Assembly: GCF_003334355.1 (NCBI RefSeq) | Contig: NZ_QOWP01000004.1 | Length of the DNA: 64,000 nucleotides | Strand: one strand, 5' to 3' | DNA from: Escherichia coli | GTDB taxonomy: Bacteria > Pseudomonadota > Gammaproteobacteria > Enterobacterales > Enterobacteriaceae | Shown: positions 29,432-34,301 of the stretch, one piece after another | Position numbering within the stretch: the stretch's first letter is position 1 | How the letters are laid out: each line of letters opens with the position of its first letter | Notes under the pieces: generated by a model | The model's database searches: none | Seen by the model: the letters and a program-made list of their open reading frames with translations, nothing else | Told to the model about the DNA's origin: nothing | Program-made: the position numbers and the translations under genes

Positions 29432-29536
29432 CTAGCCTGTCCGTTCAATAAGCAGAACGGACAAAACCAGCACAACAGCAATGGCAAAAAACGATGACGT
29501 GATAATCAGTGTCTCGACGAACATTTGATCGTTCAT
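29432..29536 (-). CDS. yoaI: Small membrane protein YoaI (34 aa)
   Basis: Minus-strand ATG at 29536; translation [34 protein letters not shown]; below the ORF-track size cutoff. Confidence 0.7.
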
Positions 29537-29705
29537 AGCATGCCCCCGGGAGATAGCTGTTTTCACGTTATTGTTAGCGTGCACAAATGGCAGTTTGATG
29601 ACAGTTCGCCTGATTTTTTATGCAAAAAACGTAAAGATTTTCTACTTCCTTCCTGCAGCAAGCGTAAAGTAAGCAGGCTTATTATTTTTTGGCAAGGAAA
29701 CCACG

Positions 29706-30152
29706 ATGTTTGATGTCACTTTGCTGATCCTGCTCGGGTTAGCTGCGCTGGGCTTTATCAGTCATAACACCACTGTCGCCGTTTCAATTCTGGTGTTGAT
29801 CATTGTCCGCGTCACACCGTTAAGCACCTTTTTCCCGTGGATTGAAAAACAGGGGCTAAGTATCGGGATAATCATTCTGACGATTGGCGTTATGGCCCCC
29901 ATCGCCAGCGGGACGCTACCGCCCTCAACCTTGATTCACTCGTTTCTGAACTGGAAATCGCTGGTGGCAATTGCAGTAGGCGTTATTGTCTCCTGGCTGG
30001 GTGGGCGCGGCGTGACGTTAATGGGCAGCCAGCCGCAACTGGTTGCTGGGCTGCTGGTGGGCACTGTTTTAGGCGTAGCGCTGTTTCGCGGCGTACCGGT
30101 TGGCCCGCTTATTGCCGCGGGTCTGGTTTCGCTGATTGTGGGGAAACAGTAG
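29706..30152 (+). CDS. yeaL: UPF0756 inner-membrane protein YeaL
   Basis: 148 aa hydrophobic ORF. Confidence 0.9.
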
Positions 30153-30930
30153 TTAATCCCGCAATATATCGGCCTGGCGTTTGCCCCAGGCCTTTCTTAA
30201 ACATAGTAATAAAGGCCGTTGTTGAATCATACCCCAGCGTATGAGCAACTTTCTGTACAGTATCGCCTTTCACTAATCCCTGAAGCGCCATAATCAGCTG
30301 TAACTGCTGTCGCCACTGGCGAAAACTCAACCCCGTCTCTTTTACTATCAGTCGGGCAAGATTGCGTTCACTCATCGCAAAAAAGCCAGCCCATTGCCCC
30401 AATGACCCCCACTCGACGGGCTCTTTCGCCATCATCTCCACCATCGCGCGGATTTTAGGATGAGAAGAAACGGGTAGGTGCAGCTGTTGTTGTGGCTGCT
30501 GAGGGAGTTCATCAAACAGGACATGAATTAATCTGCGGGTCATCGGCTCAGCACGCTGAGTCGTCGTCCTGTTTGCCAGAGTTAAAATTAATTCCCGGCA
30601 TAAGGGCGATATTTTCAATGTGCAACAGGTTGTCGGCATTGTCACTGCGCTGGGTTCGATAAACAGAAAACAGAGTTCAGCGTTAGCTGTCACTTGATTG
30701 CTATGTTCCACCCCGCCCGGTATCCAAACCGCATATTGTGGCGGCACCATCCACAAAGCATTTTCCACCGTACAGGTAATTGCACCATGTAATGCCAGTA
30801 TCAGCTGTCCTTTGCGGTGCTGATGTACAGGACTGGTTAACTCATCCGTTCCGGCGTGAATACAAAATGCGACCGCGGCTTCATGGTGTCGGTCGGGTTC
30901 ATAGCCATTGAGATTCAACCTGTGCATCAT
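30109..30930 (-). CDS. yeaM: AraC-family transcriptional regulator YeaM (NimR)
   Basis: 273 aa; cupin-like N-terminus and C-terminal AraC helix-turn-helix; divergent from yeaN. Confidence 0.9.
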
Positions 30931-31026
30931 TTTGTCCGAATTTAGCGATAATTTGTCATTTTAGCTTGATTCAACATAACTATAAAAACGGTAAGGTACA
31001 GCCTCGTTTGTAACAATGAGAAGCAT

Positions 31027-32208
31027 ATGACCTGTTCAACTTCATTAAGCGGCAAAAACAGGATTGTCCTTATCGCTGGCATTCTGATGATTGCCACAAC
31101 ATTACGCGTCACCTTTACCGGCGCAGCACCGTTACTGGATACGATTCGTTCCGCTTACTCGCTGACGACAGCGCAAACCGGCTTATTGACCACCCTGCCA
31201 TTATTGGCCTTTGCGCTAATCTCACCTTTGGCCGCCCCGGTAGCGCGACGTTTTGGTATGGAACGTAGCCTGTTTGCCGCGTTACTTTTGATCTGTGCTG
31301 GTATCGCAATTCGCTCTCTCCCTTCGCCTTACTTATTATTTGGCGGTACAGCGGTCATTGGCGGTGGGATTGCATTAGGCAATGTCTTACTGCCAGGATT
31401 AATTAAACGCGATTTCCCTCATTCCGTCGCCAGACTTACCGGCGCATATTCCCTGACAATGGGAGCTGCGGCGGCACTTGGATCGGCTATGGTCGTGCCG
31501 CTGGCTTTGAACGGTTTTGGCTGGCAAGGCGCGTTGCTCATGCTGATGTGTTTTCCTCTGCTGGCTCTTTTTTTATGGCTGCCACAGTGGCGAAGCCAAC
31601 AACATGCAAATTTGAGTACCTCGCGCGCCTTACATACTCGGGGTATCTGGCGTTCGCCGCTTGCCTGGCAGGTCACATTGTTTCTTGGGATCAACTCACT
31701 GGTCTATTACGTGATTATTGGCTGGCTTCCGGCGATCCTCATCAGTCACGGCTATAGCGAAGCACAGGCGGGTTCACTGCATGGTTTGCTGCAACTAGCC
31801 ACAGCAGCTCCCGGTTTGCTGATCCCTCTTTTCTTACATCATGTGAAAGATCAGCGTGGTATTGCAGCGTTCGTTGCCTTGATGTGCGCAGTGGGCGCTG
31901 TTGGGCTCTGCTTTATGCCAGCGCACGCGATCACCTGGACTCTGCTTTTCGGCTTTGGTTCCGGCGCAACAATGATACTGGGGTTGACGTTCATTGGTCT
32001 TCGGGCAAGTTCTGCGCATCAGGCGGCGGCACTCTCGGGGATGGCACAATCCGTCGGGTATTTGTTGGCAGCCTGTGGGCCGCCGCTGATGGGTAAAATA
32101 CACGATGCTAACGGTAACTGGTCTGTACCACTTATGGGTGTTGCCATACTTTCACTACTGATGGCGATTTTCGGACTTTGCGCCGGGAGAGACAAAGAAA
32201 TTCGCTAA
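31027..32208 (+). CDS. yeaN: MFS transporter YeaN (NimT)
   Basis: 393 aa ORF with 12-TM MFS architecture. Confidence 0.9.
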   Translation: MTCSTSLSGKNRIVLIAGILMIATTLRVTFTGAAPLLDTIRSAYSLTTAQTGLLTTLPLLAFALISPLAAPVARRFGMERSLFAALLLICAGIAIRSLPSPYLLFGGTAVIGGGIALGNVLLPGLIKRDFPHSVARLTGAYSLTMGAAAALGSAMVVPLALNGFGWQGALLMLMCFPLLALFLWLPQWRSQQHANLSTSRALHTRGIWRSPLAWQVTLFLGINSLVYYVIIGWLPAILISHGYSEAQAGSLHGLLQLATAAPGLLIPLFLHHVKDQRGIAAFVALMCAVGAVGLCFMPAHAITWTLLFGFGSGATMILGLTFIGLRASSAHQAAALSGMAQSVGYLLAACGPPLMGKIHDANGNWSVPLMGVAILSLLMAIFGLCAGRDKEIR

Positions 32209-32262
32209 TATCCGGTGCTATAGTGACGTAACAAATCATGCGTGAAAGGGAGAACAAACACG

Positions 32263-32631: not shown

Positions 32632-32886
32632 TTATTTTTCACCAGCCGGATGGTCACGCCGCCACAATGCCCATTCATCAATCGTTTCACCGCCCGGTAA
32701 TTTGCAATTGTTGCTGACCCCTTGCGCTGTCTGCACTGGAATGAGCGTCCCGCCCTTCTGCTGGCAATAGACCGACGCCGGATTTGCCATACCAATCTGC
32801 GGCGGTTTAGGTGCTTCTGGCTGAGAAGGGGTTGAACAACCAGCCAGGACCAGCAAGCAAGGCAGAACAAAACTGATAATTTTCAT
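32632..32886 (-). CDS. yoaF: DUF333 lipoprotein YoaF
   Basis: 84 aa; lipoprotein signal with lipobox LAGCS. Confidence 0.88.
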   Translation of the reverse strand: MKIISFVLPCLLVLAGCSTPSQPEAPKPPQIGMANPASVYCQQKGGTLIPVQTAQGVSNNCKLPGGETIDEWALWRRDHPAGEK

Positions 32887-33068
32887 TTATTGATCTCACA
32901 TATTTATCCAAGATTAGAGTATCGCGGTATCGTTTTGTTTTGCAGCACTATTTTTATTACATTCACTCAAAACATATTACGTCTTGTTTCATCTTTGTTG
33001 ATGATGTTTTATCATGCCTGCAAAGATTAAATAATCAGCATTTACCCGCCGTATCCTGGAGTTGTTCC

Positions 33069-34093
33069 GTGTCAGATCAGATTATCGCCCGCGTCTCGCA
33101 ATCCCTTGCCAAAGAACAGTCACTGGAAAGTCTGGTCCGACAGCTTCTGGAGATGCTGGAAATGGTCACTGATATGGAATCAACCTACCTGACCAAAGTG
33201 GATGTCGAAGCGCGCCTGCAGCATATTATGTTTGCCCGTAACAGCCAGAAAATGCACATCCCGGAGAATTTTACCGTCTCGTGGGATTACTCGTTATGCA
33301 AACGCGCCATTGATGAAAACTGCTTTTTCAGCGATGAAGTCCCCGACCGTTGGGGTGACTGTATTGCGGCACGCAATCTTGGCATCACCACATTTCTGAG
33401 CACGCCAATTCACTTACCGGATGGATCATTCTATGGCACGCTTTGCGCCGCCAGCAGTGAGAAGCGCCAGTGGAGTGAACGCGCGGAACAGGTTTTACAG
33501 TTATTCGCCGGACTGATTGCACAATATATTCAAAAAGAGGCACTGGTTGAACAGCTGCGCGAAGCCAATGCTGCGCTGATTGCGCAATCGTATACCGACT
33601 CGTTAACCGGCTACCGAATCGGCGGGCGATTTTTGAAAATCTGACGACACTGTTTTCCCTCGCCCGGCATCTTAACCATAAGATAATGATCGCGTTTATC
33701 GATCTGGATAACTTCAAATTAATCAATGATCGTTTTGGTCATAATAGTGGCGATCTGTTTCTCATTCAGGTTGGCGAGCGCCTTAATACGCTCCAGCAAA
33801 ATGGCGAAGTTATTGGTCGTCTCGGCGGTGATGAGTTTTTAGTTGTTTCACTAAACAACGAGAATGCGGATATTTCGTCGCTGCGAGAACGCATTCAGCA
33901 GCAAATACGTGGAGAATATCACTTAGGTGATGTTGATTTGTATTATCCCGGTGCCAGTCTTGGCATAGTAGAAGTCGATCCTGAAACAACCGATGCAGAC
34001 AGTGCCCTGCATGCTGCCGATATTGCGATGTATCAGGAGAAAAAACACAAACAGAAAACACCTTTTGTCGCGCATCCAGCGCTACATTCCTGA
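33069..34093 (+). pseudogene. dgcP: GAF-GGDEF diguanylate cyclase yeaP/dgcP disrupted by a 1-nt deletion (-1 frameshift) near 33611..33613
   Basis: ORF 32940..33644 (GAF part, GTG start 33069) and ORF 33686..34093 (GGDEF part with RLGGDEF) are in different frames; adding one nt to ggctaccg (giving ggcTTAccg) restores SLTGLPNRRAIFENL and a 341 aa product. Confidence 0.8.
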
Positions 34094-34125
34094 GGCGTAT
34101 TCACATCCTTTTGATTGGTGATAAC

Positions 34126-34224
34126 ATGCGAATCGGTATTATTTTTCCGGTTGTAATCTTCATTACAGCGGTCGTATTTTTAGCATGGTTTTTTATTGGC
34201 GGCTATGCTGCCCCGGGAGCATAA
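34126..34224 (+). CDS. yoaK: Small membrane protein YoaK (32 aa)
   Basis: ATG 34126; MRIGIIFPVVIFITAVVFLAWFFIGGYAAPGA; stop TAA 34222..34224. Confidence 0.7.
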   Translation: MRIGIIFPVVIFITAVVFLAWFFIGGYAAPGA

Positions 34225-34226
34225 AG

Positions 34227-34301
34227 ATGAAAAAAACAACGATTATTATGATGGGTGTGGCGATTATTGTCGTACTCGGCACTGAGCTGGGATGGTGGTA
34301 A
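34227..34301 (+). CDS. yoaJ: Small membrane protein YoaJ (24 aa)
   Basis: ATG 34227, 2 nt after the yoaK stop; MKKTTIIMMGVAIIVVLGTELGWW. Confidence 0.7.
   Translation: MKKTTIIMMGVAIIVVLGTELGWW

Follow-up and report, generated by a model that had tools for sequence, protein, structure and literature searches.

Five short open reading frames (ORFs) in a 64,000-nucleotide (nt) stretch of the Escherichia coli contig NZ_QOWP01000004.1 (hereafter the window), namely yoaI, yoaK, yoaJ, yoaH and yobF, are almost certainly genuine genes for small proteins that belong to the E. coli core genome, that have already been catalogued and that were missed only through a threshold of 60 amino acids (aa) in the ORF track used to read the DNA. 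This is a recognition of known genes and not a discovery, and the finding as it was originally given is already known. All five genes are annotated in RefSeq (strain PSS-12) as well as in E. coli K-12, where they carry the identifiers b1788 (yoaI), b4676 (yoaK), b4675 (yoaJ), b1811 (yoaH) and b1824 (yobF). The DNA of yoaK, yoaJ, yoaH and yobF is the same as in K-12, and yoaI is identical to its K-12 counterpart as a protein. YoaI, YoaK, YoaJ and YoaH score above the cut-offs of their curated NCBIfam equivalog models. YobF (DUF2627/DUF2527) matched no NCBIfam model, and the protein clusters to which it belongs are named YobF family or DUF2627.

The five genes had been proposed in a first-pass annotation that was made from the letters of the sequence. 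The coordinates, lengths and sequences that it assigned to them were all reproduced by ORF listing and translation, and its gene names, sizes and reading of the products as small membrane proteins match the RefSeq and K-12 annotation, the NCBIfam models and published experiments. The ribosome profiling and epitope tagging that it put forward as checks are already in the literature and were positive; they include retapamulin-assisted ribosome profiling (Ribo-RET) and the sequential peptide affinity (SPA) tag for YoaI and YobF and the SPA tag for YoaK. The full window is ~99.3% identical to E. coli K-12 MG1655 and is collinear with the PSS-12 chromosome apart from one copy of IS5 that is absent here (in PSS-12 the ~1.2-kb element lies between yeaH and cdgI, and the corresponding site in the window is at ~25710..25713). 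The 6-kb stretch 29000..35000, which contains yoaI, yoaK and yoaJ, is 100% identical to PSS-12, and the locus was found in 5421 of 5426 complete E. coli genomes. Beyond the species, the synteny yeaK-yoaI-yeaL-nimR-nimT ... yoaK-yoaJ-yeaQ is kept in Enterobacter, Salmonella and Citrobacter.

The claim that the genes are invisible to the 60-aa track is easily accounted for. When each ORF is extended to the first upstream ATG, GTG or TTG the lengths become 50 aa (yoaI), 37 aa (yoaK), 38 aa (yoaJ), 59 aa (yoaH) and 47 aa (yobF), and since all five stay below 60 aa the track cannot show them. Two of the genes had also been described as shadowed, and longer ORFs do overlie both: yoaH is covered by a 66-aa ORF on the plus strand (50125..50325), and yobF is overlapped by plus-strand ORFs of 194 aa and 68 aa together with a 104-aa ORF in another frame of its own strand. 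These longer ORFs are non-coding. The list of genes below 60 aa was incomplete, however, as it omitted the annotated gene yoaL (57151..57309, minus strand), which is discussed with yobF.

Hydrophobicity was expressed as the best 17-residue Kyte-Doolittle mean and was ranked among the 663 ATG-started ORFs of 20-59 aa in the whole window. YoaK (2.98) ranks first, YoaI (2.81) fourth and YoaJ (2.26) 17th, in agreement with the hydrophobic helices that had been noticed in these three sequences. The other top-ranking short ORFs are mostly in-frame C-terminal tails of annotated membrane proteins (for example yeaQ, nimT, yeaL and mntP). A hydrophobic span long enough to cross a bilayer is present in YoaI, YoaK and YoaJ, absent in YoaH and marginal in YobF. 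The collective title of membrane proteins under which the five genes had been grouped thus holds for the first three and fails for YoaH, which is hydrophilic (grand average of hydropathy -0.47, best 17-residue mean 0.85), while YobF is a marginal case that is only moderately hydrophobic (1.45). A further observation concerns a strongly hydrophobic 38-aa ORF (33726..33842, plus strand; sequence beginning MIVLVIIVAICFSF) that ranks sixth and lies out of frame in the GGDEF-coding part of dgcP; it is probably a chance occurrence.

The best understood of the five is yoaI (29432..29536, minus strand), a RefSeq and K-12 coding sequence whose 34-aa product crosses the membrane once and activates EnvZ. 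The gene sits in one of the short gaps to which it, yoaK and yoaJ had been assigned, the 274-nt interval between yeaK and yeaL, and it reaches the yeaK stop with 0 nt to spare. YoaI matches NCBIfam model NF041475 over residues 1-34 of 34 with 79.8 bits (cut-off 45), and the YoaI/YldA group has its own Pfam family, PF23689. The K-12 gene has the same protein, the same position between yeaK and yeaL, the same Pho box and the same residues S26, V27 and E31; it differs from the window gene by five nucleotides, every one of them synonymous, and in nothing functional. The most hydrophobic 17 residues are residues 14-30, and S26, V27 and E31 are kept in the window protein as well as in the Enterobacter, Salmonella and Citrobacter orthologues.

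Upstream of yoaI, a Pho box (29586..29603, minus strand) was located as an exact match to TGTCATCAAACTGCCATT, an 18-nt sequence that sits 50 nt upstream of the start codon and that is listed as the PhoB site for yoaI/yeaL in a chromatin immunoprecipitation sequencing (ChIP-seq) study (PMC10294691). By ChIP-seq and RNA sequencing (RNA-seq) the same study determined that PhoB binds at yoaI, that the RNA levels are PhoB-dependent and that RNA polymerase is recruited (PMC10294691). The TGTCAT/TGCCAT half-sites are conserved 5' of yoaI in Enterobacter, Salmonella and Citrobacter. A promoter scan near yoaI predicted no sigma-70-like promoter, which is expected because a Pho-box promoter lacks a -35 element.

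At the protein level, YoaI gives a strong initiation peak in Ribo-RET, and both the chromosomal SPA fusion and a fusion to green fluorescent protein localise to the membrane (PMC11429745). The level of YoaI-SPA climbs as Mg2+ drops, independently of PhoQ and of transcription. An interaction between YoaI and EnvZ was detected in a two-hybrid assay, with omrB and ompC reporters increased and an ompF reporter decreased, and the substitutions E31A and E31Q abolished both the EnvZ interaction and the reporter effects and left the abundance of the protein unaffected (PMC11429745). In the mechanism thus shown, the Pho box takes the place of the -35 element and allows PhoB to activate yoaI under phosphate limitation. 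The 34-aa product inserts into the membrane with a single helix and keeps a short tail in the cytoplasm, and its abundance is raised post-transcriptionally at low Mg2+. The peptide binds the sensor kinase EnvZ via the invariant Glu31 and increases the output of EnvZ-OmpR. YoaI works like the small proteins of the MgrB-PhoQ, MzrA-EnvZ and SafA-PhoQ pairs: it is a single-pass peptide that is induced by one two-component system and binds the sensor kinase of another. It differs from MgrB, MzrA and SafA in its unrelated sequence and in that it activates through a glutamate of the cytoplasmic tail and not through a periplasmic domain.

The surroundings of yoaI are tightly packed. The stop codons of the convergent genes yeaK and yoaI adjoin at 29431/29432 with 0 nt between them, and no terminator was predicted at this junction. 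Nearby, the convergent genes yeaL and nimR share 44 nt at their 3' ends (30109..30152).

The genes yoaK (34126..34224, plus strand) and yoaJ (34227..34301, plus strand) encode small membrane proteins of 32 aa (MRIGIIFPVVIFITAVVFLAWFFIGGYAAPGA) and 24 aa (MKKTTIIMMGVAIIVVLGTELGWW), respectively, and both are located in the 266-nt gap between dgcP and yeaQ. Their separation by exactly 2 nt (TAA-AG-ATG) is as had been noted. The K-12 pair (b4676 and b4675; SPA-verified) has the same DNA, the same 2-nt gap and the same position between dgcP and yeaQ. YoaK matches NCBIfam model NF033821 over its full length with 69.1 bits (cut-off 32), its orthologues are matched by Pfam PF28021, and YoaJ scores 60.4 bits against NF011343 (cut-off 54).

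The substitution pattern points to selection on the proteins, and the conservation of the ORFs across genera places them far beyond chance. In yoaK the ratio of synonymous to non-synonymous codon differences is 19:2 in the comparisons with Enterobacter and with Citrobacter and 14:5 in that with Salmonella, and the differences from Enterobacter are distributed over the three codon positions as 4/0/20, with a similar distribution in the other genera. The motif FP...A.....WF...GYA.P was found in YoaK, in which P8, A15, W21, F22, Y27 and A28 are invariant among 16 diverse homologues and are all present in the window protein. yoaJ varies more than yoaK and its changes are conservative; its differences from Citrobacter fall 2/1/14 on the three codon positions. 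In Enterobacter, Salmonella, Citrobacter and a Logan contig, as in E. coli, yoaJ has 24 codons and the pattern M[KR]KTT...GT.[LF]GWW, while the spacing between yoaK and yoaJ varies by lineage and can be -4, 0, 2 or 3 nt. The fixed length and ends of yoaJ combined with this shifting spacing show that the two are separate cistrons selected as proteins, and neither a single ORF nor a conserved RNA. A conserved GGTGA Shine-Dalgarno sequence lies 4 nt upstream of yoaK, and a GGGAG/GGGGG Shine-Dalgarno sequence for yoaJ is embedded in the final Pro-Gly-Ala codons of yoaK. These conserved motifs support the start codons that are predicted for the two genes. A side observation is that gene callers recognised yoaJ in only 3 of the 8 orthologous loci examined; intact 24-codon copies are left uncalled in the other five, which are Enterobacter and Salmonella assemblies (loci L005, L007, L008, L009 and L010, at about 7100..7180).

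Published work bears on the expression and the localisation of both peptides. SPA-tagged YoaK expressed from the chromosome has been detected (bioRxiv 10.1101/511675), and RNA-seq in K-12 defined a yeaP(dgcP)-yoaK-yoaJ transcription unit (PMC4620388). YoaJ is an integral membrane protein with an N-in/C-out orientation that co-precipitates with RseP (PMC4597795), and it has been reported to rise after diamide treatment. Purified RseP cleaves both YoaJ and YoaK in vitro, although the behaviour in vivo was inconsistent and the two were placed among the class II substrates (PMC10470546). yoaK and yoaJ form a tight pair, each with its own Shine-Dalgarno sequence and co-transcribed with dgcP in K-12, and their products are inner-membrane peptides with a single helix and substrates of purified RseP. 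Given the spacing and the embedded Shine-Dalgarno sequence, termination at yoaK and the translation of yoaJ are probably coupled. YoaK and YoaJ probably bind and modulate a larger membrane protein, as most small membrane proteins of known action do. The comparison with the kinase-modulating small membrane proteins is one of analogy alone, and the strict conservation of P8, A15, W21-F22 and Y27-A28 supports the partner-binding reading in the case of YoaK.

Downstream of the pair, a GC-rich hairpin (34321..34346) lies between the convergent yoaKJ and yeaQ genes and is a likely shared terminator. On the minus strand it is terminator-like for yeaQ, with 10 pairs followed by a T run, and it begins 20 nt past yoaJ. 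The plus-strand RNA of the same interval folds into the same hairpin of 11 bp (-21 kcal/mol, z -2.76). The hairpin probably terminates both yeaQ and yoaKJ, with the role at yoaKJ inferred from the sequence. Neither antisense RNAs nor Rfam elements were detected at the yoaK-yoaJ locus. A sigma-70-like match near yoaK (34100..34127) was discounted, as it ends inside the start codon and as two matches were obtained where ~2.1 are found in shuffled sequences.

Upstream of the pair is the diguanylate cyclase gene dgcP (yeaP; 33069..34093, plus strand), which is intact in K-12 but a pseudogene in the window. A 1-nt deletion relative to nt 541 of the K-12 gene, at ~33608 of the window, splits the ORF into 32940..33644 and 33686..34093. 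The Prokaryotic Genome Annotation Pipeline (PGAP) flags dgcP as 'frameshifted' in PSS-12, which is identical over this region, and at least 4 other complete genomes share the frameshift because they are 100% identical over the 6 kb. The deletion leaves ~480 nt of untranslated RNA 5' of yoaK, which, from the sequence, could bring Rho-dependent polarity on yoaKJ. In Salmonella and Citrobacter, yoaK and yoaJ are retained beside yeaQ and dgcP is absent, with no cyclase gene of any kind upstream, so that the pair is not functionally dependent on DgcP and must have its own promoter there. It was also observed, in a small sample, that chromosomal YoaK homologues repeatedly follow GGDEF genes of three architectures, namely GAF-GGDEF (dgcP), short GGDEF and MASE5-GGDEF. 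These GGDEF genes are located at 5936..7099 of loci L005/L006, 1740..2525 of L013, 2883..4135 of L018 and 1872..3102 of L074.

Relatives of YoaK are also found in phages. An exhaustive representative search with YoaK returned 25 relatives, and the distant ones are either chromosomal and placed after GGDEF genes or situated in Rac-like and lambdoid prophages directly after the repressor gene. The phages HK106 (NC_019768), mEp234 and mEp506 share an identical 32-aa YoaK-type ORF, MRIGIVFPILVFIVAMGFMAWFIIDGYATPSG, which scores 54.9 bits on the YoaK model (cut-off 32). This ORF is flanked by cI and hicA and lacks an annotation in the three GenBank records; in HK106 it occupies 2501..2599 of locus L016 (30464..30559 of NC_019768, minus strand). 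A Klebsiella phage has a relative that falls inside a short coding sequence labelled 'CI transcriptional regulator'. Other phage and prophage copies were located at 4001..4099 (L014), 4001..4105 (L015), 2480..2599 (L017) and 4001..4111 (L019), and no promoter or terminator was predicted between cI and the phage YoaK-type ORF.

A scan of IMG/VR gave 89 viral contigs with a YoaK relative, of which the best 80 were analysed. From these, 26 contigs were excluded as they carry a chromosomal-type YoaK at the contig end, i.e. a host flank (integrase, dgcP, yoaK) brought in by the call of the provirus boundary, and two further loci with chromosomal-type sequences were removed, leaving 52 phage-type loci (L021-L072). 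In 44 of the 52, a CI-type repressor gene is immediately upstream on the same strand. The upstream repressors belong to phrog_4 or phrog_8 and form several mutually divergent groups, and the downstream genes vary. The phage YoaK-type ORFs are 31-34 aa in length and lie 12-172 nt 3' of the CI-type repressor genes in the same direction. A yoaJ gene was not found beside the phage YoaK copies. PHROGs contains no family for the phage YoaK-like peptides; YoaI and YoaK were likewise unmatched there, and YoaJ and YobF gave only chance-level matches.

The membership of the phage copies in the YoaK family is already known, since PGAP assigns the copies in E. coli prophages to it. The association of the family with CI-type repressor genes appears to be undescribed so far, and no link between YoaK and prophages was found in the literature examined. 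The phage YoaK-like ORFs hold the same slot after the repressor gene as the lambda genes rexA and rexB, which are co-transcribed with cI from PRM in lysogens; they differ from RexA and RexB in that they are unrelated to them and encode single-helix peptides of 31-34 aa. Tentatively, and with low confidence, it may be suggested that the YoaK family is not solely a housekeeping peptide of enterobacteria: in lysogens the repressor transcript would also yield the phage peptide, which would act on a conserved target in the host inner membrane, for example in superinfection exclusion or in the control of a neighbouring defence or toxin module, with the core yoaK-yoaJ pair as the host counterpart and possibly a two-peptide complex.

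The remaining two genes of the set differ from the first three. yoaH (50130..50309, minus strand) encodes a 59-aa protein of the YoaH (UPF0181) family that is identical to K-12 b1811 and that matches NCBIfam model NF003476 over its full length with 114.2 bits (cut-off 72). By its sequence, YoaH is a conserved soluble protein and not a membrane protein. An AGGAG Shine-Dalgarno sequence is found upstream of the gene. A sequence search of the Protein Data Bank with YoaH found no solved relative and returned only chance-level matches to designed proteins.

yobF (63026..63169, minus strand) encodes a 47-aa protein that is identical to K-12 b1824; as the first cistron, the gene heads the yobF-cspC operon and ends 12 nt before cspC (62804..63013). 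YobF gives a Ribo-RET signal, and YobF-6xHis is membrane-associated (PMC11429745). The same study determined that YobF is induced at low Mg2+ and that a normal growth yield under this condition needs yobF with an intact start codon; the phenotype of the ΔyobF strain was complemented in trans only when the start codon was intact (PMC11429745). The small RNA OxyS pairs near the Shine-Dalgarno sequence of yobF and represses it (PMC10965054). yobF is thus the translated, OxyS-repressed first cistron of the yobF-cspC mRNA, and the protein is induced by stress post-transcriptionally and is needed at low Mg2+ if growth is to reach its full yield. The homologues from Klebsiella, Raoultella and Scandinavium (P0019, P0022 and P0027) are 38 aa long; they share the N-terminus with the 47-aa E. 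coli protein and end before its nine C-terminal residues (LCLRAKKTI).

A match to the Rfam cspA thermoregulator RF01766 (135.7 bits; 62729..63189, minus strand) spans cspC and the whole of yobF. It was not taken as evidence of a thermosensor in yobF, as the alignment is confident over the coding region of cspC and has a low posterior probability over yobF. It may be observed that yobF occupies the slot that corresponds to the cspA 5' leader, which is poorly aligned in this match. The naming of the downstream gene is inconsistent between annotations, as PGAP calls it 'cspE' in PSS-12 (L002 988..1197) and the same locus is cspC in K-12 (L004 36227..36436).

The omitted gene yoaL, which is annotated in RefSeq and is identical to K-12 b4751, is a translated upstream ORF of 52 aa that overlaps the start of yoaE by 13 nt. 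A stop codon in yoaL strongly reduces the expression of a yoaE-lacZ fusion, and translation of yoaL is needed for the expression of yoaE (bioRxiv 10.1101/511675).

Three other explanations of the short ORFs were weighed. That they are chance hydrophobic frames in non-coding intergenic DNA is scarcely credible: short ORFs are plentiful (109 of at least 20 aa overlap 29000..34800) and the out-of-frame ORF within dgcP at 33726..33842 is comparably hydrophobic, but ORF length is kept across genera, yoaK and yoaI have a strong synonymous bias, curated hidden Markov models are passed, and translation-initiation and epitope-tag data have been published. It is very unlikely that the ORFs act mainly in cis as leaders or upstream ORFs for a neighbouring gene and that the peptides have no role. 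This description does hold for yoaL, where the stop codon lowers yoaE-lacZ, and it is partly plausible for yobF, in view of its OxyS target site and of the mere 12 nt between its end and cspC. It does not suit yoaJ or yoaI, which have no downstream gene to control because yoaJ is followed by the hairpin and the convergent yeaQ gene and yoaI runs into the convergent yeaK gene. The amino-acid sequences are moreover under purifying selection, the YoaI variants E31A and E31Q are non-functional though the protein is still made, and complementation in trans by the peptide has been shown for YobF, with a requirement for the start codon, and for YoaI.

It is also unlikely, if somewhat less so, that YoaK, YoaJ or both perturb the membrane in the manner of type I toxins and are not modulators of a partner. 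Their size and single hydrophobic helix resemble those of the Hok/Ldr-type toxins, RseP, which detoxifies HokB, also cleaves YoaJ and YoaK in vitro, and the phage YoaK-like genes adjoin toxin-antitoxin modules (hicAB or HipA-like genes). yoaK and yoaJ are core-genome genes, however, and the invariant P8, A15, W21-F22 and Y27-A28 suggest a specific interaction surface. In addition, the locus yielded neither an antisense RNA nor an Rfam element, no toxicity of YoaK or YoaJ is reported in the literature examined, and chromosomally tagged YoaK accumulates in normal cultures. With regard to the status of the five ORFs as genes, no evidence against it was found, and the weaknesses concern the mechanisms. 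Several points count against the latter. A canonical transmembrane helix in YobF is doubtful because its hydrophobicity is weak and because the nine C-terminal residues that are missing from the homologues cut into the hydrophobic stretch. The RseP results for YoaJ and YoaK depend on the tag, and assignment to class II means that cleavage was not seen with chromosomal RseP (PMC10470546). The coupling of yoaJ translation to that of yoaK is a suggestion from spacing only, and if yoaKJ use the dgcP promoter, their expression in the window could differ from that in K-12.

Two other RNA elements were recognised in the window, and both are known. These are the small RNA gene sroD (43595..43680, minus strand; Rfam, 115 bits) and the Mn2+ (yybP-ykoY) riboswitch upstream of mntP (61039..61135, plus strand), which at 41.6 bits falls just below the gathering score of 45.

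Little changes with respect to the original finding: K-12 and RefSeq annotate the genes, three of them have published protein-level evidence, and for YoaI a mechanism has been published. The case is useful as a calibration, since a cut-off of 60 aa conceals at least six annotated genes within 64 kb. Its sole forward-looking element is the association of YoaK-family ORFs with CI-type repressor genes, which provides a testable handle on YoaK.

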